NCBI RefSeq assembly: GCF_006345805.1
Contig: NC_043003.1
Span: 31,062,001-31,126,000, forward strand
Reading direction: 5' to 3'
Length of the DNA: 64,000 nt
Source of the DNA: Octopus sinensis
Taxonomy: Eukaryota
Positions 28,648-59,094 of this stretch are shown piece after piece. Both the position numbers and the translations under genes were made by a program. The notes under the pieces were generated by a model that worked only from the letters and a program-made list of their open reading frames with translations, was not told the origin of the DNA and searched no databases. Each line of letters starts with the position of its first letter. Position 1 is the first letter of the stretch.

Positions 28648-28653
28648 ATAATA

Positions 28654-30300
28654 TCGGTGCCACCTCACTCTCCCGTGAACATCTAGATTCCTTCCTCTCT
28701 TTCGTTCAATCTTTCCATCCAGCCCTCCACTTCACTTCCACTATCTCCAACACCTCTGTCTCCTTCCTCGACATTTCGGTTAGCATTCTTCACTCCACTC
28801 TTACCACCTCCATTCACTACAAACACACAGACTCACACTCTTACCTCAACTTCTCTTCCTCCCACCCAGAACACACCAAGCTTTCCATCCCCTATTCCCA
28901 ATTCCTCCGTCTACGTAGGCTCTGTAGTGACGACCATGACTTTGAGACTCAGTCTCAACGTATGGCTCACCACTTCATCCTACGTGGATACCCCCTCACC
29001 ACTATCCACACCGCCCTTGCCAGAGCACGTTCCGTGGACCGTGTATCTGCTCTCTCTCCCCGAACCCGCCCTGTAGTCTCCCGCCTCCATTTTCCCCTCA
29101 CTTACCACCCCACGACCCTATCTCTCCAACGCACCATTCTTAGAGCTTTCCGTCATCTCCAGTCCGACCCGTCCACTTCACACCTCTTCCCTAACCGACC
29201 CCTCCCCTCTTTCAAACGAGCCCATAACCTTCGAGACCTTTTGGTCCATAGCTCCTTCCCTGACCCTACCTCCCAACCTGGCTCGTTCCCCTGCTCCCTC
29301 CCACGTTGCCGCACTTGCCCTTACCTCTCCAACACCACCCTCCTCACTGGCACCTATCATCGACCCTTTCGCATCATCAACTCCTTCACCTGCACCTCCA
29401 GCATTATTATCTATTGCGTCTCTTGCTCTCTCTGCCATTCCCTGTACATCGGACAAACGGGACGCCGCTTGGCTGACCGGTTCGCGGAACACCTTCGTGA
29501 CATCCACCTTGCGAACGACAACCGGTCTCACGCCATTTCCGCTCCACCGGTCACTCCTTGCAACACCTGTCTGTGTCAGTTTGTCCTACACAGAGGCCAT
29601 CCGGATTCCCGTTTGCGCCGTGAACAGGAATTAATCTTCTCTCTTCGCTCTTATATGCCATTTGGTCTCAACTACTCCCCCCCCTCCTCATCTAATCCCC
29701 CTCTCCCCCTCCTCATCTAACTCCCCCCGACCCCTACTTCCTTCAGCCTTCATCCTTTCACCCCTACTCCTCTTCCCTTCTTCCTTTTCTCCCTCCCTCC
29801 TTCTTCCCTCTTCCCCTTCCCTCTGCCTCTCACTCCCCTTCCTCTCCCCTCTCTCCTCTATCCTCCCTTCCTCTCCCCCTCCTCTTCTCCTCTCCTTCCT
29901 CTCTCCCTCCCCTCCCCTCACTAATCTCTCTCATACACACACACACACTCTTCTCATACACACACACCACACACTCTTATGTTTGAGCGGGGTCATTCAA
30001 CCCAATATCTCCCCTTTTCGCTCTTGCGTCTCATGTTTGATCTTTGACTTCTGGCCGAAATCAGATCGCCATGTTGATTCGCTAGCTTTTGTACGCATAT
30101 TTTTTTTCTCCTTCTTTCTGTGTTTTTTTTCTCTGTGTATCTTTCTGTTGAAGAGCGTAGGCTCGAAACGTTAAAGACTTGTTTCATTTATATTTCCTGA
30201 GCGCCATACTAATACAATTGTTTGTTTGTATTCCACCTGCCTTCATCTTTTGTTTATTTCCGTAAACCTGCCTTCGTCTTTTGTCTATTTTCATAAAGCT
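28654..30300 (+). mobile_element. 5'-truncated Penelope-like element (RT C-terminus plus GIY-YIG endonuclease, 3' pLTR) inserted in (TA)n
   Basis: [54 protein letters not shown], CxxPRCxTC and IIYCVSCSLCHSLYIGQTGRRLADRFAEH. TA tracts on both sides. Confidence 0.92.
30140..30177 (+). ncRNA. Minimal hammerhead-like motif in the PLE pLTR (variant core CUGUUGA)
   Basis: UCUUU-CUGUUGA-A-GAGC(GUAG)GCUC-GAA-ACGU-U-AAAGA. Stems I and II and a palindromic ACGU stem III are present, but core A6 is replaced by U. Confidence 0.55.
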
Positions 30301-31019: not shown

Positions 31020-33885
31020 CAAAGTAAAGTTGTAAGGTACCGCACAAGTGGAAATATATTAAAAGAAGGTTTGAAAATGCAATTTTAAGATGTTTATTCA
31101 CTTGATCAGTTTCACATTTTTAGAAAAAGATTGTCAAAAGTAAAATGTAAAGCTTTGTATAAGCTTTGTTGTGTTAAGAACTAGTTGTCACAGAAGTATT
31201 AAAATTCATATATTCTTCGATAATAATAAGAAAATGTTAAAAATAGTTTACAAGAAAGTATTAAGAAAATATTCAACAAAAAGTATTACACACACGTGAA
31301 CAAACACATATACACACACATGTGCACACACAACACCCTGACAATTCCCAATCACACACATACACACACACATCACCAGGATAATTATAACAACATAAAC
31401 ATACTTAGAGAGAGACACACATACGCACTCATTTATACACACTCACGTACACACACACTCGCGTACACACACACTCACGTACACACACATAACATCCCCA
31501 TCAATATAAAACACACCAATATACACACACGCACCCACAGACGCTATCATACACACACGCGAACAAACACATACACACATGCGCACACACAACACCCTAA
31601 CAAATGTTAATCACTTACATAAACACACACAATCGTACACACATATACACACACCATCCTACCAAATATAAAAGACACACAGACCCATTTACACACGCCA
31701 TAATAAACTCTGGGACCAAATAAAAACGCCCCCACACACAGAGACACAAACACATATACACATACACATAGAGACGTGCACAGAGACACGCACACATTCA
31801 CACTATTCTGACCTCTGAGGCCAGTCTCAAAAACCACTGAACCATGACAGACTAGCTCAGAAACAAAAAAAATCCTTTTAATTCCACATTGCTCTTTCTT
31901 CCTCCGACCCTAACCAATCTCCCACACTGTCCCTTAAAATAACAGACAATCCTTAGCTACACACGAGACAGAAAAAATGTCAGAAAGATAGGTTGGTTCT
32001 TCTCGAATTCTTTGTAAACTCTTAAATATATCTCCTTCTGTGTATATATATACTACTAAACAAACATGATTTTATTGAATTCTTAATACTTTTTCTGTGT
32101 ATGTATATATATACTATCAAACAAACATGATTTTTATTGAACTCTGCCTGTCTCTGTCTCTCTTGTTTACTCTTGTAGGTGCGAGGTCGTTGTGAAGTCT
32201 TGGTGCAGAAGAAGGAGGAGGAGAAGGAGGAGAAGAGAAGAAGAAGAAGAAGAAGAAGAAGAAGAAGAAGAAGAAGAAGAAGAAGAAGAAGAAGAGAAGA
32301 AGAAGAAGAGAGAAGAATGCGGGGAGTGAAGTGCATGATAGTAGTATGTAAATGGTTAAGTGCCCTGAAAGTGACCGTTGTGGATGGTAGTAGTGATTGA
32401 ATTATTGGGATATTCCTTTTGAATGTCTTGTTTATAAAATTTGCGTAGGTGTTATTCTAAACAGTAATAGTGGTAAAGTTAGGAAGAAGGTGGCGGAGAG
32501 GGAGAAGATGAAGAAGAAGAAGAAGGAGAAAGAGAAGGGAGAATAAGAAGGAATGTAGGCAGTATGATAGTAGTAGGGTGTTAAATGGTCAAGTAACTTA
32601 AAAGTGGGTCGTTATGGATTATAGCAGTGATTGGGACTGTTTTTTAATGAATTCTTGGAAATCTCTTGAGTGTATCATTTTAAATATTTGCGTGTGTATT
32701 TGTGTTATTCTAAGATATCCCAAATTAAAGAAGGATTTACAACCAAAAGCTCTCTCATACATCTTCACGCACAACCCTCTTAACAATGAAGCCATCGACA
32801 CCATCCTTCAAAACATTCCCCTCCTAAAAAAGGACCACAGAATGAACTTAATCCTCCAAACACACACCACCATAAAAAGCAAGAGACAACCCAAATCTAT
32901 GAAAAGTCTCCTAACACAAGCCCGAATACTCTCAACAACAACACAGAAGCCGTCAGTAAAAAGTGCAGAAGACCCAACTGTGGGATATGCGTCAATTTAA
33001 TTGATGGATCAGAGTTCTCCTTCAAACAGGAATAACGTTTCACAGTGAAAAGCAGCTTCACATGTGCCTCGGAAAACCTAATATACGCACTAGCCTGCTC
33101 TGGGTATCAAGAGCAATACATAGGCCAAACAAAAAACAGTCTACGTAAAAGAATGGCTCTTCACAGATTCCATTCAGCCAACACATCGACATTTGCAACA
33201 ATAAAAAAATCCAAGCTTCAGAATTTTCCCCTCTACCAATTCAGGGACGATACAACCTGTAGCCACGAATTAGTAAAGAGACTCTCTTTATTACAAAATA
33301 CAGACCCCTTTTGAACGCGTCTACAACACACGACATGTCCACCACGGCCTTAGAATAACACAAACACACACGCAAATATTAAAAATGATGCACTCAAGAG
33401 ATTTCCATGAATTCATTAAAAACAGTCCCAATCACTGCTATAATCCATAACGACTCACTTTTAAGTCACTTGACCATTTGACACCCTACTACTATCATAC
33501 TGCCTACATTCCTTCTTATTCTCTCTTCTCTTTCTCCTTCTTTTTCTTCGTCTTCTTCTTCTTCGCAACCTCCTTCCTAACTTTACCACTATTACTGTTT
33601 AGAGTAACACATACGCAAATTTTATAAATAAAACATTCAAAAGAGATATCTCAGTAATTCGATCACTGCTACCATCTACAACGGGTCACTTTCAGGGCAC
33701 TTGACAATTTAACATACTACTATCATGGCACTCCCGCATTCTTCTTCTTCTTCTTCTTCTTCTTCTTCTCTTCTTCTTCTTCTTCTTCTTCTTCTTCTTC
33801 TTCTTCTTCCGTACCAAGACTTCACAACAACCTCGAACCCACAAGAGTAAACAAGAGAGATAGAGACAGGAGGCAGAAACAAGGA
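31020..33885. mobile_element. Penelope-like element with an inverted 3' arm (left arm minus, GIY-YIG fragment and 3' region plus)
   Basis: 32713-33312 encodes KSSFTCASENLIYALACSGYQEQYIGQTKNSLRKRM. About 32140-32712 is the reverse complement of about 33350-33880. Confidence 0.8.
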
Positions 33886-34093
33886 AAATGCCCCTTGTAT
33901 TTGAATATTATGCAAATATTCTTAAAAAACATTTTTCTTTTAATTTTTCCTAAAATTAATTGTTTTCCATACTTTCAGTTGAAAAAGTCTCAAAGACTGA
34001 AACAGTACTGGAATGTTTTTTATAAAATTATTTTAGCATTTTCTACCTTGACTTTTTCCATATATATCAACTCATGTGTTCCTTTTCAACCTG

Positions 34094-34136
<43 letters not shown>

Positions 34137-48499: not shown

Positions 48500-48617
48500 T
48501 AAGGAACATAGGCTTGAGACGTCAAAGGCATTTCTATTTTTCCTGACCGTCAAACTAATACACCTGCTTGTTGTTTCCTCACGTGTCTCTCTTTCGTTTT
48601 CTATACATTTGAACCTT
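48500..48617 (+). mobile_element. Decayed PLE pLTR end immediately upstream of array 1
   Basis: GGAACATAGGCTTGAGACGTCAAAGGC..TTCCTGACCGTCAAACTAATAC..TTGTTGT parallels 30812-30900. Confidence 0.55.
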
Positions 48618-48922
48618 ATATATATATATATATATATATTGTCATAAAAAAAGGGGTAGAATTAATTAATTGTTAATAAATTCGACCAAGCAGTATTCGG
48701 TATGTAAAGACCATTTACGGTATATTTGAAGTATTAATTTATAAAAATATGGTAAAGTAAAAAAATTCACTTTACCACACACCGAACTTTTCAGAAATAG
48801 CAGCCAAAAATTTGGCTATTTCTTCAACTGCAAATAAAAGTCTCCAGACAATGCATACTCAGAAAATAACTCACATAGGTATAAGGGAAAAAAACAATGA
48901 AAGATCACATCCATATACGATA

Positions 48923-48984
48923 CCCGAGGACAGTCTGTTTCTGGATTTGTGGGTAAAACGCCACTTTTCCTTCATCAGCTCAGA
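48923..48984 (-). ncRNA. Type I hammerhead ribozyme (array 1, left arm)
   Basis: Exact reverse complement of 49602-49663. Confidence 0.8.
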
Positions 48985-49601
48985 GATTTCTTCTGATTTA
49001 GATTTGAAAATACTAAGAATCAAACATACCCGTCCGATATCTGTAACATCGGACAAACCATGCCAGACACCCAGTACTAGCGAATCCAAAAATACGAATG
49101 AGATCTATTGTTCTCCCTGTCCACCCACGTGAGTCATAGAGCATTACATTTCTACAGAGGTAAAAACTGCAGTTCAAATTCTTGGAGAGAAAGCATTATA
49201 TTGTCATCAAAAAAGGGTGGCTGCTATTTCTGAAAAGTTCGGTGTGTGGTAAAGTGAATTTTTTTACTTTACCATATTTTTATAAATTAATACTTCAAAT
49301 ATACCGTAAATGGTCTTTACATACCGAATACTGCTTGGTCGAATTTATTAACAATTAATTAATTCTACCCCTTTTTTGATGACAATATAATGCTTTCTCT
49401 CCAAGAATTTGAACTGCAGTTTTTACCTCTGTAGAAATGTAATGCTCTATGACTCACGTGGGTGGACAGGGAGAACAATAGATCTCATTCGTATTCTTGG
49501 ATTCGCTAGTACTGGGTGTCTGGCATGGTTTGTCCGATGTTACAGATATCGGACGGGTATGTTTGATTCTTAGTATTTTCAAATCTAAATCAGAAGAAAT
49601 C

Positions 49602-49663
49602 TCTGAGCTGATGAAGGAAAAGTGGCGTTTTACCCACAAATCCAGAAACAGACTGTCCTCGGG
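49602..49663 (+). ncRNA. Type I hammerhead ribozyme (array 1, right arm), predicted cut after GUC at 49657
   Basis: UCUGAG-CUGAUGA-A-GGA..GUGG/CCAC..UCC-A-GAA-ACAG(A)CUGU-C-CUCGGG. Stem I is UCUGAG/CUCGGG and stem III is near-palindromic. Confidence 0.8.
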
Positions 49664-50859
49664 TATCGTATATGGATGTGATTTTTTTCCCTTATACCTA
49701 TATATATATATATATATAGTGTTTCACGGATTAAGAGGAAACATTTATATCACATTGTTACTGTTATTTCTGAATGTCGTTCCAATGTTAATAACGTGAT
49801 TTTCTTCTTCCTCTCTTGTCTCTAAATCAAACGATATAATTGAATAGAACCCCTCTTTCTCTTTCTCTGTCTCTCTATCTATCTTTTTCCCTCTTTGTTT
49901 TTTTTCCTTTCTCCAAAAAAAACATTAAAAAATTCTCCTCATCTAAACAAAGCATAGAACGTCCATAAAAGAACAAACAAAAAACAAAGCAAAAAATAAA
50001 ATGTCACATTCACCAAGGATACGCTGTTTTTATGATTTTGATTTTAATTCTTATCGTGAAGAGTTCGTTTAAACGAACGAAAGCGCTTATAATAAAGCAT
50101 TATATAATAAAGAATTATCCAAAATTCTGACTGCTTCCTTTTCTCTCGATACACACACACGCACAAACACACACAGACACTCACACACACAGACACACGC
50201 ATGCACGCACGCATGTATATGCATGAATGCATGTATGTGTGTATGTTTTTGTATGAACATGATTTTTGTATGAACATGATTTTAACATGATTAAAAGCAC
50301 AATGAGCGAAGAAAAATATCTCGTCTGTGTCAATGGCATTAATTTAGATAAATATATCAAGAGACATTGAATACTGCATGTAACAATTTCTTAATCAAGT
50401 TCTTAATTGAAAAAGAAAGCAACAACATATACTTACCTTGTTCAAAGCATGAAAATTGATTGTAGGAGATTAATTCTTAATTTCACAAAATTATTTCCTT
50501 TTTCTTCGAGAATTGTTAAAAATTACCAGTCGATTTTCGTTATATTTTCATCTAAGAAGATTTCGAGTGTACTACAATTTTTACGAATGGCATTAAGTGC
50601 AACATCCTTATTTTATGGTGGAAACGGTTATGTCATTCTTGAAATTTATTTTAGAAATGAGATATGAAGGAAGAAATATAAGCATTTTGGGCAATCTGAA
50701 GAATGCACAAACATTTAAAAAAGAAGAGTCAAGTTACTGCCCGCTCTCACTTACTGGGAAAAGATCTCCAAATCATTACATTCCTCGTCATAATTGTCCA
50801 TCTATCCATCCATTTTTACCGCCTACTATTTTACCGCCTACTAAAAAAAGGCTGAGTAG

Positions 50860-51237
50860 ACGCAGGAGTGGCTGTGTGGTAAGTAGCTTGCTTACCAACC
50901 ACATGGTTCCGGGTTCAGTCTCACTGCGTGGCACCTTGGGCAAGTGTCTTCTACTATAGCCTCGGGCTAACCAAAGCCTTGTGAGTGGATTTGATAGACG
51001 GAAACTGAAAGAAGCCCGTCGTATATATGTATATGTATATGTATAAATGTGTGTTTGTGTGTTTGTCTTTGTCCCCCCAACATCAGAGTTTTATGTCTCC
51101 GCAACTTAGCGGTTCGGCAAAAACCCTCCGATAGGATAAGTACTAGGCTTGCAAAGAATAAGTCCTGGGCTCGGTTTGCTCGACTAAAGGCGGTGTTCTA
51201 GCATGGCCGCAGTGAAATGACTGAAACAAGTAAAAGA

Positions 51238-51245
<8 letters not shown>
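50860..51245 (+). mobile_element. Full-length family B SINE
   Basis: GCAGGAGTGGCTGTGTGGTAAGTAGC head through the GACTGAAACAAGTAAAAGAGTAAAAGAG tail. Confidence 0.9.
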
Positions 51246-51296
<51 letters not shown>

Positions 51297-51630
51297 TTTT
51301 AGATCCCAGTTCATGGATATATTACGGAAACAAAAACAGGTCAATTAGCAAAAAAAAAGTGCAAAGATAAATAATAGGAAATCTAAAGTAAAATCATTTA
51401 AAAATTAATCAGTCAAACGTGGAGAGATACTGAGAAGAATCAATAGATAAGCTACCAGATTTATGATCTTACAAAACTTATCAGTTTGTGAACTATGTAA
51501 ATAAACAAGAATTTTGTTGGCCTCCAACGGATCATATTTTACTAAATTATACTAGTGTTATCATAAAGATAAAGCATTTGACATTTGTTTTTTTTTTATA
51601 TGATGATTAATTAATTGATGCATCTTGTTT

Positions 51631-51703
<73 letters not shown>

Positions 51704-51706
<3 letters not shown>

Positions 51707-54700
51707 AATTAAGGACTGAACACGAAAAGTGGACAGTCAACATGCTAGATATAGACGTCAAATCGCCATTCACCACAAAAGATTATGTTCTCAGATCAAA
51801 CTCAACACAAAACCATAGCAATAAACAAGTGAAAAATATACGAAATAAAATAATTACCCATGTACTAAATTAGTTTCAGCTGTTATTTTCCGCAAGGAAA
51901 ACTGCAGCCATCATCAGCATGGTCCGTTATAAATGTAATTTGCTGGACTAGATGCAAACACGATACCGAAATATCGCGTGCATGGAGTTCAGCCTATTAC
52001 ATTTGAATATACCTTTCAAATGCCTTTACTTTGGCGCGTTGAAACCCGAGAAAACCAGCCTGCAGCTAATAATTAGCAGCAGTTAATTTATCGGTTAGAG
52101 AACATATTTATTTATATAAAAGTAATTAAGGGTAGAAATTGATATTTATCAATTAAGACCAGTGGTCTAGCATATTAAAAAAGAATCCGAAGATTAAAAT
52201 ATTTATATATACCAATTAAGGACTGAACACGAAAAGTGGACAGTCAACATGCTAGATATAGACGTCAAATCGCCATTCACCACAAAAGATTATGTTCTCA
52301 GATCAAACTCAACACAAAACCATAGCAATAAACAAGTGAAAAATATACGAAATAAAATAATTACCCATGTACTAAATTAGTTTCAGCTGTTATTTTCCGC
52401 AGGAAAAACTGCAGCCATCATCAGAATGGTCCGTTATAAATGTAATTTGCTGGACTAGATGCAAACACGATACCGAAATATCGCGTGCATGGAGTTCAGC
52501 CTATTACATTTGAATATACCTTTCAAATGCCTTTACTTTGGCGCGTTGAAACCCGAGAAAACCAGCCTGCAGCTAATAATTAGCAACAGTTAAGAATGGT
52601 TGAGAACATAATGCTATGGTTTTGTGTTGAGTTTGATCTGAGAACATAATCTTTTGTGGTGAATGGCGATTTGACGTCTATATCTAGCATGTTGACTGTC
52701 CACTTTTCGTGTTCAGTCCTTAATTGGTATATATAAATATTTTAATCTTCGGATTCTTTTTTAATATGCTAGACCACTGGTCTTAATTGATAAATATCAA
52801 TTTCTACCCTTAATTAATTTTATATAAATAAATATGTTCTCTAACCGATAAATTAACTGCTGCTAATTATTAGCTGCAGGCTGGTTTTCTCGGGTTTCAA
52901 CGCGCCAAAGTAAAGGCATTTGAAAGGTAATTCAAATGTAATAGGCTGAACTCCATGCACGCGATATTTCGGTATCGTGTTTGCATCTAGTCCAGCAAAT
53001 TACATTTATAACGGACCATGCTGATGATGGCTGCAGTTTTCCTTGCGGAAAATAACAGCTGAAACTAATTTAGTACATGGGTAATTATTTTATTTCGTAT
53101 ATTTTTCACTTGTTTTGCTATGGTTTTGTGTTGAGTTTGATCTGAGAACATAATCTTTTGTGGTGAATGGCGATTTGAAGTCTATATCTAGCATGTTGAC
53201 TGTCCACTTTTCGTGTTCAGTCCTTAATTGGTATATATAAATATTTTAATCTTCGGATTCTTTTTTAATATGCTAGACCACTGGTCTTAATGATAAATAT
53301 CAATTTCTACCCTTAATTACTTTTATATAAATAAATATGTTCTCTAACCGATAAATTAACTGCTGCTAATTATTAGCTGCAGGCTGGTTTTCTCGGGTTC
53401 AACGCGCCAAAGAAGTAAAGGCATTTGAAAGGTATATTCAATGTAATAGGCTGAACTCCATGCACGCGATATTTCGGTATCGTGTTTGCATCTAGTCAGC
53501 AATTACATTTATAACGGACCATGCTGATGATGGCTGCAGTTTTCCTTGCGGAAAATAACAGCTGAAACTAATTTAGTACATGGGTAATTATTTTATTTCG
53601 TATATTTTCACTGTTTATTGCTATGGTTTTGTGTTGAGTATGATCTGAGAACATAATCTTTTGTGGTGAATGGCGATTTGAAGTCTATATCTAGCATGTT
53701 GACTGTCCACTTTTCGTGTTCAGTCCTTAATTGGTATATATAAATATTTTAATCTTCGGATTCTTTTTTAATATGCTAGACCACTGGTCTTAATTGATAA
53801 ATATCAATTTCTACCCTAATTAATTATATAAATAAATATGTTCTCTAACCGAAATTAACTGCTGCTAATTATTAGCTGCAGGCTGGTTTTCTCGGGTTTC
53901 AACGCGCCAAAGTAAAGGCATTTGAAAGGTATATTCAAATGTAATAGGCTGAACTCCATGCACGCGATATTTCGGTATCGTGTTTGCATCTAGTCCAGCA
54001 AATTACATTTATAACGGACCATGCTGATGATGGCTGCAGTTTTCCTTGCGGAAAATAACAGCTGAAACTAATTTAGTACATGGGTAATTATTTTATTTCG
54101 TATATTTTTCACTTGTTTATTGCTATGGTTTTTGTTGAGTTTGATCTGAGAACATAATCTTTTGTGGTGAATGGCGATTTGACGTCTATATCTAGCATGT
54201 TGACTGTCCACTTTTCGTGTCAGTCCTTAATTGGTATATATAAATATTTTAATCTTCGGATTCTTTTTTAATATGCTAGACCACTGGTCTTAATTGATAA
54301 ATATCAATTTCTACCCTTAATTAATTTTATATAAATAAATATGTCTCTAACCGATAAATTAACTGCTGCTAATTATTAGCTGCAGGCTGGTTTTCTCGGG
54401 TTTCAACGCGCCAAAGTAAAGGCATTTGAAAGGTATATTCAAATGTAATAGGCTGAACTCCATGCACGCGATATTTCGGTATCGTGTTTGCATCTAGTCC
54501 AGCAAATTACATTTATAACGGACCATGCTGATGATGGCTGCAGTTTTCCTTGCGGAAAATAACAGCTGAAACTAATTTAGTACATGGGTAATTATTTTAT
54601 TTCGTATATTTTTCACTTGTTTATTGCTATGGTTTTGTGTTGAGTTTGATCTGAGAACATAATCTTTTGTGGTGAATGGCGATTTGACGTCTATATCTAG

Positions 54701-54825
54701 CATGTTGACTGTCCAATTTTCGTGTTCAGTCCTTAATTGGTATATATAAATATTTTAATCTTCGGATTCTTTTTTAATATGCTAGACCACTGGTCTTAAT
54801 TGATAAATATCAATTTCTACCCTTA

Positions 54826-54836
<11 letters not shown>
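51704..54836. repeat. Hammerhead array 2: 507-bp unit, about 1.8 copies followed by about 4.4 inverted copies, flanked by (TA)n
   Basis: ACCAATTAAGGACTGAACACG at 51704 and 52211. Orientation switches at about 52610. Copies are nearly identical. Confidence 0.95.
53016..53080 (+). ncRNA. Type I hammerhead ribozyme (array 2), predicted cut after GUA at 53075. Further copies: 53519-53583, 54019-54083, 54523-54587 (+); 51858-51922, 52365-52429 (-)
   Basis: CCAUG-CUGAUGA-U-GGCUG..UUUUCC(UUGC)GGAAAA..CAGCU-GAA-ACUAA(U)UUAGU-A-CAUGG. All three stems pair and the core is intact. Confidence 0.88.
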
Positions 54837-54866
<30 letters not shown>

Positions 54867-54871
<5 letters not shown>

Positions 54872-57800
54872 GGCTTAGTAAAATAAATTACTTTACCGCA
54901 TACTGAACTCATTAGAAATAGCAGCTAAAAAAACATTTATAAAACTATTTCTAATACTTAAAGAAAACCTCTCTCATATAGTGTTTGCTCAATTCAACTC
55001 ACGGAAGTATGGGGGGTAGAGACATTAAAAAATCAGATGCAAAGGTTATTTGAGAACGTACGTTTCAGATTAGTCAAAACTCGACATTTCTATCATCAGC
55101 TCAGAACTCCCTGGTTTGGATTTGAAAACACTGAAAGTGGGAGCATACTCCTTCGGCCTCCTATCGCTTTTGAAGATCCGCTCGTAACTAACAGTGCCAA
55201 CAAACCCAAATATGCAAGCGAAGAATTTCTGCTCTCCCCTTTCCACCAGCGTGGGTTAAAATCAGCAAACATTATGCTTTTTTCGGTAAAATCCGAGGCA
55301 TTTAAATAGAGAGAGATGAATTATAATTTCAACAATTGAGGGTAAAATTAATTAATTAATCAATTTCACCAAGTGTTCAGTATGCAAAGGGACCATTTAA
55401 GGCGAATTCAAATTATTACATTATATAAAAGGGCTTAGTAAAATAAATTACTTTACCGCATACTGAACTCATTAGAAATAGCAGCTAAAAAAACATTTAT
55501 AAAACTATTTCTAATACTTAAAGAAAACCTCTCTCATATAGTGTTTGCTCAATTCAACTCACGGAAGTATGGTGGGTAGAGACATTAAAAAATCAGATGC
55601 AAAGGTTATTTGAGAACGTACGTTTCAAGATTAGTCAAAACTCGACATTTCTATCATCAGCTCAGAACTCCCTGGTTTGGATTTGAAAACACTGAAAGTG
55701 GGAGCATACTTCTTCGGCCTCCTATCGCTTTTGAAGATCCGCTCGTAACTAACAGTGCCAACAAACCCAAATATGCAAGCGAAGAATTTCTGCTTCCCCT
55801 TTCCACCAGCGTGGGTTAAAATCAGCAAACACTATGCTTTTTTCGGAAAATCCGAGGCATTTAAATAGAGAGAGATGAATTATAATTTCAACAATTGAGG
55901 GTAAAATTAATTAATTAATCAATTTCACCAAGTGTTCAGTATGCAAAGGGACCATTTAAGGCGAATTCAAATTATTACATTATATAAAAGGGCTTAGTAA
56001 AATAAATTACTTTACCGCATACTGAACTCATTAGAAATAGCAGCTAAAAAAACATTTATAAAACTATTTAATACTTAAAGAAAACCTCTCTCATATAGTG
56101 TTTGCTCTATTCAACTCACGGAAGTATGGGGGGTAGAGACATTAAAAAATCAGATGCAAAGGTTATTTGAGAACGTACGTTTCAAGATTAGTCAAAACTC
56201 GACATTTCTATCATCAGCTCAGAACTCCCTGGTTTGGATTTGAAAACACTGAAAGTGGGAGCATACTCCTTCGGCCTCCTATCGCTTTTGAAGATCCGCT
56301 CGTAACTAACAGTGCCAACAAACCCAAATATGCAAGCGAAGAATTTCTGCTCTCCCCTTTCCACCAGCGTGGGTTAAAATCAGCAAACACTATGCTTTTT
56401 TCGGTAAAATCCGAGGCATTTAAATAGAGAGAGATGAATTATAATTTCAACAATTGAGGGTAAAATTAATTAATTAATCAATTTCACCAAGTGTTCAGTA
56501 TGCAAAGGGACCATTTAAGGCGAATTCAAATTATTACATTATATAAAAGGGCTTAGTAAAATAAATTAAATTACTTTACCGCATACTGAACTCATTAGAA
56601 ATAGCAGCTAAAAAAACATTTATAAAATTATTTCTAATACTTAAAGAAAACCTCTCTCATATAGTGTTTGCTCAATTCAACTCACGGAAGTATGGGGGGT
56701 AGAGACATTAAAAAATCAGATGCAAAGGTTATTTGAGAACGTACGTTTCAAGATTAGTCAAAACTCGACATTTCTATCATCAGCTCAGAACTCCCTGGTT
56801 TGGATTTGAAAACACTGAAAGTGGGAGATACTCCTTCGGCCTCCTATCGCTTTTGAAGATCCGCTCGTAACTAACAGTGCCAACAAACCCAAATATGCAA
56901 GCGAAGAATTCTGCTCTCCCCTTTCCACCAGCGTGGGTTAAAATCAGCAAACACTATGCTTTTTTCGGTAAAATCCGAGGCATTTAAATAGAGAGAGATG
57001 AATTATAATTTCAACAATTGAGGGTAAAATTAATTAATTAATCAATTTCACCAAGTGTTCAGTATGCAAAGGGACCATTTAAGGCGAATTCAAATTATTA
57101 CATTATATAAAAGGGCTTAGTAAAATAAATTACTTTACCGCATACTGAACTCATTAGAAATAGCAGCTAAAAAAACATTTATAAAACTATTTCTAATACT
57201 TAAAGAAAACCTCTCTCATATAGTGTTTGCTCAATTCAACTCACGGAAGTATGGGGGGTAGAGACATTAAAAAATCAGAGGCAAAGGTTATTTGAGAACG
57301 TACGTTTCAAGATTAGTCAAAACTCGACATTTCTATCATCAGCTCAGAACTCCCTGGTTTGGATTTGAAAACACTGAAAGTGGGAGCATACTCCTTCGGC
57401 CTCCTATCGCTTTTGAAGATCCGCTCGTAACTAACAGTGCCAACTGTTGGGTTTGTTGGCACTGTTAGTTACGAGCGGATCTTCAAAAGCGATAGGAGGC
57501 CGAAGGAGTATGCTCCCACTTTCAGTGTTTTCAAATCCAAACCAGGGAGTTCTGAGCTGATGATAGAAATGTCGAGTTTTGACTAATCTTGAAACGTACG
57601 TTCTCAAATAACCTTTGCATCTGATTTTTTAATGTCTCTACCCCCCATACTTCCGTGAGTTGAATTGAGCAAACACTATATGAGAGAGGTTTTCTTTAAG
57701 TATTAGAAATAGTTTTATAAATGTTTTTTTAGCTGCTATTTCTAATGAGTTCAGTATGCGGTAAAGTAATTTATTTTACTAAGCCCTTTTATATAATGTA

Positions 57801-59020
57801 ATAATTTGAATTCGCCTTAAATGGTCCCTTTGCATACTGAACACTTGGTGAAATTGATTAATAATTAATTTTACCCTCAATTGTTGAAATTATAATTCAT
57901 CTCTCTCTATTTAATGCCTCGGATTTTACCGAAAAAAGCATAGTGTTTGCTGATTTTAACCCACGCTGGTGGAAAGGGGAGAGCAGAAATTCTTCGCTTG
58001 CATATTTGGGTTTGTTGGCACTGTTAGTTACGAGCGGATCTTCAAAAGCGATAGGAGGCCGAAGGAGTATGCTCCCACTTTCAGTGTTTTCAAATCCAAA
58101 CCAGGGAGTTCTGAGCTGATGATAGAAATGTCGAGTTTTGGACTAATCTTGAAACGTACGTTCTCAAATAACCTTTGCATCTGATTTTTTAATGTCTCTA
58201 CCCCCCATACTTCCGTGAGTTGAATTGAGCAAACACTATATGAGAGAGGTTTTCTTTAAGTATTAGAAATAGTTTTATAAATATTTTTTTAGCTGCTATT
58301 TCTAATGAGTTCAGTATGCGGTAAAGTAATTTAATTTATTTTACTAAGCCCTTTTATATAATGTAATAATTTGAATTCGCCTAAATGGTCCTTTGCATAC
58401 TGAACACTTGGTGAAATTGATTAATTAATTAATTTTACCCTCACCCTCAATTGTTGAAATTATAATTCATCTCTCTCTATTTAAATGCCTCGGATTTTAC
58501 CGAAAAAAGCATAGTGTTTGCTGATTTTAACCCACGCTGGTGGAAAGGGGAGAGCAGAAATTCTTCGCTTGCATATTTGGGTTTGTTGGCACTGTTAGTT
58601 ACGAGCGGATCTTCAAAAGCGATAGGAGGCCGAAGGAGTATGCTCCCACTTTCAGTGTTTTCAAATCCAAACCAGGGAGTTCTGATCTGATGATAGAAAT
58701 GTCGAGTTTTGACTAATCTTGAAACGTACGTTCTCAAATAACCTTTGCATCTGATTTTTTAATGTCTCTACCCCCCATACTTCCGTGAGTTGAATTGGGC
58801 AAACACTATATGAGAGAGGTTTTCTTTAAGTATTAGAAATAGTTTTATAAATATTTTTTTAGCTGCTATTTCTAATGAGTTCAGTATGCGGTAAAGTAAT
58901 TTATTTTACTAAGCCCTTTTATATAATGTAATAATTTGAATTCGCCTTAAATGGTCCTTTGCATACTGAACACTTGGTGAAATTGATTAATTAATTAATT
59001 TTACCCTCAATTGTTGAAAT
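54867..59020. repeat. Hammerhead array 3: 560-bp unit, about 4.6 copies followed by about 2.8 inverted copies (fold-back at about 57449), flanked by (TA)n
   Basis: GGGCTTAGTAAAATAAATTAC at 54871, 55431 and onward. The junction is CAGTGCCAAC-tgttgggttt-GTTGGCACTG. Confidence 0.95.
57553..57606 (+). ncRNA. Type I hammerhead ribozyme (array 3), predicted cut after GUU at 57602. Further copies: 58112-58166, 58683-58736 (+); 55051-55103, 55611-55664, 56168-56221, 56734-56787, 57293-57346 (-)
   Basis: UGAG-CUGAUGA-U-AGA..GUC(GAGUUUU)GAC..UCU-U-GAA-ACGUACGU-U-CUCA. Stem III is the perfect palindrome ACGUACGU. Confidence 0.8.
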
Positions 59021-59094
59021 ATATATATATATATTATATATATATATATATATATAATATATATATATAAATAACATTCTTTTATTCTTTTATT

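Follow-up and report, generated by a model that had tools for sequence, protein, structure and literature searches.

Head-to-head polarity is known for PLEs (Arkhipova et al. 2013, PMC3846280; Craig et al. 2021, PMC8557442), in which the inverted pLTR and its tail have been explained by self-priming on an antisense template or by endonuclease resolution (PMC3846280, PMC8557442); the origin of PLE tandem and inverted structures has been called undefined (PMC8557442). In the accessible part of a study of the Poseidon PAc protein in vitro (Frangieh et al. 2024, PMC11167929), both strands of AT-rich DNA were cleaved and extended by the protein, a predicted dimer, with two internal RNA start sites located in a stem-loop and matching the genomic tail; ribozyme cleavage was not needed, and the start site was alike on the top and bottom strand. 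For PLEs, the published record already includes the head-to-head polarity, a 'tail' on one side and two start sites in vitro; a paper stating the rule reported below for the pairing of two end sites was not found in the literature searched, mostly open-access main texts without supplements. According to the available portion of a bioRxiv report on L1 twin priming (10.1101/2024.08.27.596794), two DNA ends prime on one RNA and the cDNAs are joined by microcomplementarity. For metazoan non-LTR retrozymes, the texts available of Cervera and de la Pena 2020 (PMC7229834) and of the preprint of Li et al. (10.64898/2026.07.22.740005) describe neither inverted two-arm inserts nor fixed end sites, both of which the Octopus arrays have; the word 'inverted' occurs 0 times in the former and once in the latter.

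The analyzed window was a 64,000-nt stretch of contig NC_043003.1 of Octopus sinensis, and three of its arrays (1, 2 and 3) are apparently non-coding hammerhead-motif repeats, assigned to the non-LTR retrozymes, with a ribozyme predicted from sequence. Units of 505-561 nt with a GC content of 0.34-0.35 were found as dispersed short tandems, with 1,318-1,456 first-look candidates per query genome-wide. Each unit carried a type I hammerhead motif (CUGANGA, GAAA, NUH, stems I-III) in which all three stems paired; the hammerhead topology coincided with the MFE in family A2 (-17.4 kcal/mol), and its energy was -8.0 vs. an MFE of -11.7 in A1 and only -0.8 vs. -7.6 in A3. The minor-allele rate was 0.16-0.48% in the hammerhead core vs. 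0.74-1.87% unit-wide. The Rfam scan gave no hammerhead match at the gathering score or at E values up to 10, and the ribozyme is a prediction based on core motif, pairing stems and conservation. Just three stop-free frames of 105-123 codons lay over the arrays, comparison with the window PLE protein gave no match, and an ORF with RT and GIY-YIG was absent from the arrays. Monomers were strongly self-paired, with circular MFE values of -136 to -171 compared with means of -100 to -118 (sd 6-7) for a control of 25 crude dinucleotide-block shuffles, and the ribozyme strand folded better than its complement. Dispersed short tandems, a GC content of 34-35%, a type I hammerhead motif per unit, an apparent lack of coding regions, strong self-pairing as a circle and the presence of PLEs in the same genome are all shared with metazoan non-LTR retrozymes, as far as the available texts describe them (PMC7229834; 10.64898/2026.07.22.740005), while the Octopus units of 505-560 nt exceed the 150-450 nt of PMC7229834 and fall inside the range given in the part consulted of the Li et al. 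preprint.

Self-alignment and a motif scan resolved the three arrays as fold-backs of these units, with arms joined 5'-to-5' and all six outer 3' ends entering (TA)n. Both methods agreed with the earlier note in placing the hammerhead on the minus strand in every left arm and on the plus strand in every right arm, and the strand switches fell where it had put them, at 49217/49218 (array 1), ~52610 (array 2) and 57444-57447 (array 3). Array 1 was flanked by (TA)n target seen in the sequence at 48617-48639 on its left and at 49699-49718 on its right. Its left arm (48640-49217, minus strand; family A1, 561-nt unit) spanned about one unit, with a core CTGATGA...GAAAC at 48978 and its 3' end at site 2, one of the two recurrent end sites described below; its right arm (49218-49698, plus strand) covered 0.87 unit, with a core at 49608 within a hammerhead at 49603-49662, and its 3' end lay at a non-canonical TATA word at unit position ~104. 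The junction showed 1-nt microhomology. In array 2, preceded by (TA)n at 51634-51704, a left arm of 1.8 units (51705-52610, minus strand; family A2, ~505-nt unit; cores at 51917 and 52424) ended at site 1, and a right arm of 4.4 units (52611-54833, plus strand) with four hammerheads (cores at 53021, 53524, 54024 and 54528; full motif 53016-53080) ended at site 2. The following (TA)n run (54834-54867) adjoins a 3' end of both array 2 and array 3, which are separate insertions meeting tail to tail. Array 3 belonged to family A3 (559-nt unit, ~68% identical to A1) and comprised a left arm of 4.6 units (54868-57444, minus strand; five cores at 55099, 55660, 56217, 56783 and 57342; 3' end at site 1), a 2-nt insert at the junction (57445-57446) and a right arm of 2.8 units (57447-59019, plus strand; three hammerheads with cores at 57557, 58116 and 58687; full motif 57553-57606; 3' end at site 2), followed by (TA)n at 59020-59073. 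This array was a near-perfect palindrome with a near-symmetric junction (5' ends at unit positions 459 and 451). The assembly contained ~1% single-base indels within these arrays. Among the Logan matches listed for five runs (four per junction), from which a filter removes some records, no contig bridged the junctions of array 1 or array 3, and every piece at the array 3 junction ended at 57444 or began at 57447; the runs may not be those of the assembled individual.

Polarity was tallied in 113 other loci of families A1, A2 and A3, corresponding to the best-scoring 37-39 of ~1,300-1,450 candidates per family and thus biased to young, long copies. Two loci with TA between the arms (L132, L138) and one neighbouring stretch without a copy (L144) were left out before the counts. 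Direct two-arm junctions were divergent in 78/78 cases, and the outward polarity, which the earlier note had raised on a sample it considered small, proved non-random in the tally, since all 75 direct junctions outside the window, among these best-scoring loci, were divergent. Two-armed inserts were the majority (73/113 loci, on many contigs). Three convergent neighbours were found (L050, L104 and the window run at 54834-54867), each with a TA run between the arms, and no convergent pair without TA between the arms occurred in the window or the 113 other loci. Bystander fold-backs of related families in the flanks were likewise divergent (9/9). TA was present at both outer ends in 72/78 fold-backs, and at the 3' end in 41 of the 43 unpaired arms.

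Arm 3' ends fell at two fixed sites of the unit, ~95-100 nt apart, and the two arms of an insert ended at different sites in 65 of the 66 fold-backs with both ends canonical (A2, 33/33; A3, 25/26; A1, 7/7; p ~1e-18 vs. independent choice), the site windows having been set after the data were seen. The one exception (L049) used site 2 twice. One end lay elsewhere in 12/78 fold-backs, 11 of which were from A1 and included array 1 of the window. Six further, very short second arms (11-27 nt) ended at the opposite site, as did, by eye, the bystanders with both ends visible (7/7). Arm length was independent of site (site-2 arm longer in 34/65; equal median length), and the left/right bias of site 1 (37 vs. 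24, p=0.12) was treated as chance. Both sites are TATA words matching the target, and 5-9 TATA words occur per unit. The two end sites lie in a conserved, predicted RNA module, one copy of which is at 57749-57894 (plus strand; fold z=-4.6), where a long stem whose loop contains site 1 would be followed by a terminal hairpin and, ~20 nt further, by site 2. Fold z values were -4.9 for the A1 copy and -1.7 for the A2 copy, and the consensus of eight sequences had 31 pairs, six with double changes.

Of 73 junctions, 64 were analyzed and the other nine dropped, and arm identity was compared after exclusion of pairs with fewer than 200 shared positions. Arms of one locus differed by 0.18% vs. a median of 1.23% between loci, and the within-locus difference was below the between-locus median in 57/59 pairs; at L061, for instance, the arms differed by 0.36% and the nearest other locus by 1.81%. 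Both arms copy the same sequence type, which does not by itself prove the same molecule. Unit-specific variants (398 minor substitutions, of which 42 recurred within one arm and 11 across arms) gave no consistent register, assembly noise being limiting. Offsets between the inner ends of the arms were indistinguishable from uniform (KS p=0.51, n=64). Microhomology of at least 2 nt was present in 15/31 clean joins vs. 5.6 expected, the other 33/64 junctions counting as inserts, in many cases owing to a sequencing error that interrupts the exact extension. None of the 128 5' ends lay at the ribozyme cut, both arms exceeded one unit in 37/64 junctions, and multi-unit arms read through the ribozyme. 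Among 117 5' ends, 19 were no more than 20 nt away from the site at which the partner arm starts, vs. 8.9 expected; as ends near the arm's own site were about as frequent (15 vs. 12, Fisher p=0.41), this is not taken as evidence for a cDNA stop by collision with the partner's primer.

Based on these results, the two arms most likely derive from a PLE protein that used the two cut ends of the target as primers on a single RNA. The protein, probably as a dimer, would bind the conserved two-hairpin module and nick a (TA)n run on each strand. Of the two resulting 3'-OH groups, one would start cDNA synthesis at site 1 and its counterpart at site 2, with a TATA word in the RNA helping in both cases, and each cDNA would extend a random distance over RNA that is circular or an uncut multimer. 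Annealing of the cDNA 3' ends by 1-7 nt, or their joining with a short insert, may then be followed by fill-in, and a second priming that failed or remained very short would leave a one-armed insert. Priming at both ends with head-to-head joining should give outer ends that are fixed and abut TA, inner ends that bear no relation to each other, and microhomology where the cDNAs meet, and the TA outer ends (72/78), uniform inner offsets and excess microhomology counted above agree with this part of the earlier proposal. That proposal had also taken the primers from a DNA break in (TA)n; priming from two ends stands, whereas a pre-existing break is not needed and nicks made on both strands by a PLE endonuclease are better supported by the part available of PMC11167929.

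Priming at both ends could instead have used two RNA molecules of one clonal type in an asymmetric complex, or proceeded by sequential re-priming after the first cDNA. The site and polarity counts fit this reading equally well, and the frequent re-copying of whole units by both arms would, on a single molecule, require strand displacement; however, given so diverse a pool, the observed arm identity would demand that both molecules came from one clone, and equal molecules offer no obvious reason for site alternation, and we consider this reading rather unlikely. Polarity and arm identity would also follow from a single priming with snap-back or self-priming: the cDNA folds back and is copied (in the proposal of PMC3846280, it is an antisense template that primes itself), after which TATA microhomology connects the product to the second TA end. 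This reading nonetheless appears improbable. Symmetry within 10 nt was found in 6/78 junctions (array 3 among them) vs. 3.0 expected, the other 72 being asymmetric with uniform offsets; site 1 was combined with site 2 in five of the six symmetric cases with canonical ends, and a folded cDNA would have no reason to avoid the site of the first arm among the many TATA words of a unit. The asymmetric junctions do not favour the published explanations by self-priming or endonuclease resolution, and snap-back is disfavoured as a general route. A TAATT duplication carried by just 2/190 unit copies is mirrored in both arms of array 3, although other variants of this array are not; for the mirrored 5-nt duplication, snap-back or consensus cross-talk fits better than two-site priming.

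The single-base indels of the arrays, and the palindromic structure and mirrored variant of array 3, would speak for fold-back chimeric long reads or palindrome mis-assembly. Such chimeras, however, would be symmetric and mirror the flank, and neither opposite-site pairing nor two arms that both stop exactly in TA could come from them. They would also have to recur in the 73 two-armed loci, which are spread over many contigs, and again among short diverged bystanders and an old PLE family. An artefact is very improbable, and site pairing, TA ends, asymmetric joins and the number of loci all side with the earlier argument against random read chimeras. It is scarcely credible that two independent one-armed insertions met at one site, or that a later local inversion was combined with tandem expansion by unequal crossover, although one TA run can serve as target more than once (arrays 2 and 3; L050, L104) and local amplification is favoured for retrozyme tandems in the part available of preprint 10.64898/2026.07.22.740005. 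Independent insertions would leave TA between the arms, as in the two pairs set aside and in none of the 78, with arms as different as other loci, and an inversion would not put both outer ends at fixed sites; for the 78 junctions, TA-free joins, fixed ends and arm identity rule out both.

A PLE in the window had been regarded as a fourth structure of the same kind, and its polarity was confirmed but its boundaries were not. An inverted, 3'-interrupted copy of an old PLE 3' repeat (32147-32714, minus strand; 85% identical to 33349-33870) adjoins an old 5'-truncated PLE with a broken GIY-YIG endonuclease region and 3' repeat (32715-34098, plus strand). This right arm reaches ~34098, where it has the longer ('tail') version of the family's 3' end and borders on (CA)n, and the segment 31020-32146 matches none of the 20 loci of the old PLE family, so that neither PLE arm directly adjoins (TA)n. 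Both orientations occurred in 6/20 loci of this family, all divergent, and in the two whose ends are intact (L150, L161) one arm had the short end and the other the tail end. Among the loci examined of a young intact PLE family, two-arm inserts with canonical ends were absent. A 13-sequence module profile (nhmmer) matched only bystander retrozymes in the 20 old-family and 80 further PLE loci, which represent few families among thousands of candidates. Elsewhere in the genome, RVT_1 and GIY-YIG were found together in 781 aa (L225).

The results indicate that retrozyme multimers entered the genome as such and did not grow in place, and the pairing rule and shared template, as direct evidence at the sequence level, indicate PLE-style machinery in retrozymes. 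Hundreds of young, short, non-coding inserts provide countable footprints, and the same two features connect genomic products with the in-vitro result (two starts, use of both strands, a predicted dimer) and make sharp predictions for a reconstituted assay. More tentatively, and with doubt prevailing, programmed two-site twin priming might be how PLEs normally integrate: one retrozyme circle would be bound at the conserved two-hairpin module by an asymmetric dimer, each subunit with its own site and nicked (TA)n strand, and two RTs would roll with strand displacement before the cDNA ends join. If true, tandems, inverted pLTRs and the one-sided tail would come under one mechanism.

The arrays display three traits of PLE-mobilised copies, namely an inverted 5'-truncated copy, two alternative 3' ends and a microsatellite target. 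The PLE pLTR tail measures 30-40 nt (PMC3846280, PMC8557442), whereas the Octopus tail is ~95-100 nt, in an apparently non-coding element, and it is in Octopus that site alternation has been counted (65/66). In the accessible part of the Poseidon PAc study (PMC11167929), site choice was not strand-specific in vitro, in contrast to the opposite-site pairing of Octopus arms; priming was called non-homologous, whereas the Octopus sites match the target; and head-to-head products were not addressed. With L1 twin priming, as covered by the available portion of 10.1101/2024.08.27.596794, the arrays share the outward polarity. There, it is a matter of chance where inside the RNA the second primer anneals, and the arms are mostly separate parts of the RNA with a 2.6-fold length difference, whereas in Octopus both starts are fixed, the same unit is re-copied many times in arms of equal median length, and two-armed inserts predominate; poly(A), from which the main L1 arm is primed, was absent from the arrays. 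The arrays work like twin priming, yet not in its L1 form.

Three fold-back arrays, each with a left arm on the minus strand and a right arm on the plus strand, were delimited in the window by self-alignment and motif scan: array 1 at 48640-49698 (561-nt unit), array 2 at 51705-54833 (unit of about 505 nt) and array 3 at 54868-59019 (559-nt unit). As the earlier note had described, the hammerhead core found by the motif scan lay on the minus strand in all left arms and on the plus strand in all right arms, the strand switched at 49217/8, about 52610 and 57444-7, and the six outer ends all adjoined (TA)n. An Rfam search gave no hammerhead match; type I stems I-III were predicted to pair around an intact core in A1, A2 and A3 (the retrozyme families of arrays 1, 2 and 3), and this core was less variable than the remainder of the unit (125-164 copies per family). 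The predicted hammerheads at 53016-53080, 49603-49662 and 57553-57606 had a long, two-part stem II and a short, palindromic stem III. The weak monomer fold predicted for A3 suggests that a dimer or a protein may be needed for cleavage, as in other type I motifs. A tandem of ~484-nt units at L162:265-1233, each with a CTGATGA...GAAA motif, is apparently a further retrozyme family.

Polarity was tallied genome-wide by searching one unit per family against the assembly (1,318-1,456 candidates each, 39-40 scored) and fetching 113 loci among the matches listed (37 for A3, 39 for A2 and 37 for A1). These loci and the window contained 80 adjacent minus-then-plus pairs. Two of them were excluded because TA separated their arms; the remaining 78 direct junctions were all divergent. 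Most of these fold-backs (75/78) were outside the window, at 73 of the 113 listed loci, and 72/78 had TA at both outer ends. Only three convergent neighbours were found in the same set, each with an intervening TA run. Fold-backs of more distant families in the fetched flanks were divergent in 9/9 cases.

The 3' ends of the arms were concentrated at two unit positions ~95-100 nt apart (sites 1 and 2, at 226/321 in A2, about 240/339 in A3 and about 245/343 in A1, numbered from CTGATGA), which were homologous across the three families. Among the fold-backs of the 113 listed loci and the window with both ends at sites, one arm finished at each site in 65/66, including window arrays 2 and 3, the sole exception being L049. 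The other 12 of the 78 had one end off the sites, and 11 of these were A1, window array 1 included. Unlike A2 and A3, A1 often had an off-site arm in 11/18 fold-backs (L107, L112, L115, L122, L125, L134, L136, L137, L143 and window array 1), with at least one arm at a canonical site in 18/18. Of 41 one-armed rows examined, six carried an 11-27-nt inverted second arm finishing at the other site, one a short arm ending elsewhere and one a chance match; judged by eye, the flanking fold-backs showing both ends paired the two sites in 7/7 cases. In the conserved predicted RNA structure, a long stem had site 1 within its loop, whereas site 2 was directly beyond a terminal hairpin. Fold z values of this two-hairpin module were -4.6 (A3), -4.9 (A1) and -1.7 (A2), with double changes in 6/31 pairs (8 sequences).

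Arms of the same locus differed by a median of 0.18%, compared with 1.23% between loci (the within-locus value being lower in 57/59 pairs), which indicates that both arms copied one sequence type. Independent insertions, expected to leave TA between dissimilar arms, are refuted for the 78 junctions, none of which has TA between its arms. A snap-back would be expected to yield symmetric junctions without site alternation, and is disfavoured as the general route by the observed alternation and by the mutually unrelated arm 5' ends, which were symmetric within 10 nt in 6/78 junctions (3.0 expected), with offsets uniform by KS (64 junctions). Read chimeras, for which mirrored flanks are expected, are argued against. 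None of 128 5' ends coincided with the ribozyme cut and both arms exceeded one unit in 37/64 junctions, pointing to a circular or uncut multimeric template. Joins were clean in 31/64 resolved junctions, and 15 of these 31 showed microhomology of 2 nt or more (5.6 expected). A collision signal at the 5' ends was dropped, as its control failed.

Two-site priming from both target ends followed by cDNA joining agrees with the counts: each target end would prime once, the two primings would take place at two programmed RNA sites of one template (either one molecule or two identical ones), and the resulting cDNA ends would then be joined. The earlier proposal of priming from both DNA ends with head-to-head joining is supported by the TA outer ends and the junction counts. 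We infer that the enzyme is a Penelope-like element (PLE) protein, given that the inserts are inverted, carry a tail and lie at TA targets.

Both arms of array 3 contained a TAATT duplication at mirrored places (56573, at 871 nt from the junction, and 58327, at 880 nt), which the other 188 A3 units examined all lacked. It may reflect snap-back fill-in, conversion between the arms or consensus cross-talk. Three different retrozyme families were found within 10 kb both at 48617-59073 and at L104 (G000:C1665:6500-16499), and arrays 2 and 3 had one TA run in common, which suggests that new insertions target TA runs left behind by earlier ones.

The window PLE that had been cited as a fourth structure shared the polarity of the arrays within limits other than those claimed, its inverted arm being at 32147-32714 (minus strand) and its direct arm at 32715 to about 34098 (plus strand), ending in (CA)n. 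Between a TA run and its left arm there was a 1.1 kb low-complexity stretch (31020-32146), with no match at 20 loci of the family. This old family showed both orientations at 6/20 loci, all divergent, and the two loci with intact ends paired a short end with one ~25 nt longer. A 5'-truncated PLE (28650-29717; RT thumb to GIY-YIG, with a CxxxxCxxC linker) followed a TA run and belonged to a very large family (22,675 first-look candidates, numerous long open frames). Young PLEs with intact frames were present in the genome. One such family, located in (TA)n (L225, L229 and L238; G000:C1:207472500-207480499 and others; 97-99% identity among most copies), had an intact 781-aa RT + GIY-YIG frame. 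Upstream of this frame, and overlapping it, was one of 479 aa for which Pfam gave no confident match; the family is a two-frame PLE and a candidate mobiliser. The profile search detected the module in none of the PLEs examined. By eye, a short T-rich word ending ACC/AAC-T, preceded by a hairpin and ~15-20 nt before the terminal TATA, was common to the old PLE (34040-34067), the young PLE (L229 3' end) and site 2 of the three retrozyme families; it had no significance in the profile search.

In published work, head-to-head is the commonest PLE arrangement, with self-priming proposed and the tail carried by one of two inverted pLTRs (PMC3846280), and PLEs show an inverted 5'-truncated copy, a one-sided tail and (TA)n targets, their cycle being termed undefined (PMC8557442). 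Likewise, a PLE protein, a predicted dimer, performs cleavage and extension on both strands with two start sites, whose use did not differ between the strands (PMC11167929), and twin priming is described for L1 (10.1101/2024.08.27.596794). Non-LTR retrozymes have been defined and tied to PLEs (PMC7229834; preprint 10.64898/2026.07.22.740005), and the portions available of these two sources gave no description of two-armed inserts of the type seen here; no statement of the site-pairing rule was found in the literature searched, whose coverage is incomplete. The fold-back feature of the window is judged real, and the retrozyme class and PLE geometry of its arrays were already known; what is added to these is a strict, counted rule of site pairing and of a same template, by which the mechanism of PLE integration becomes testable.
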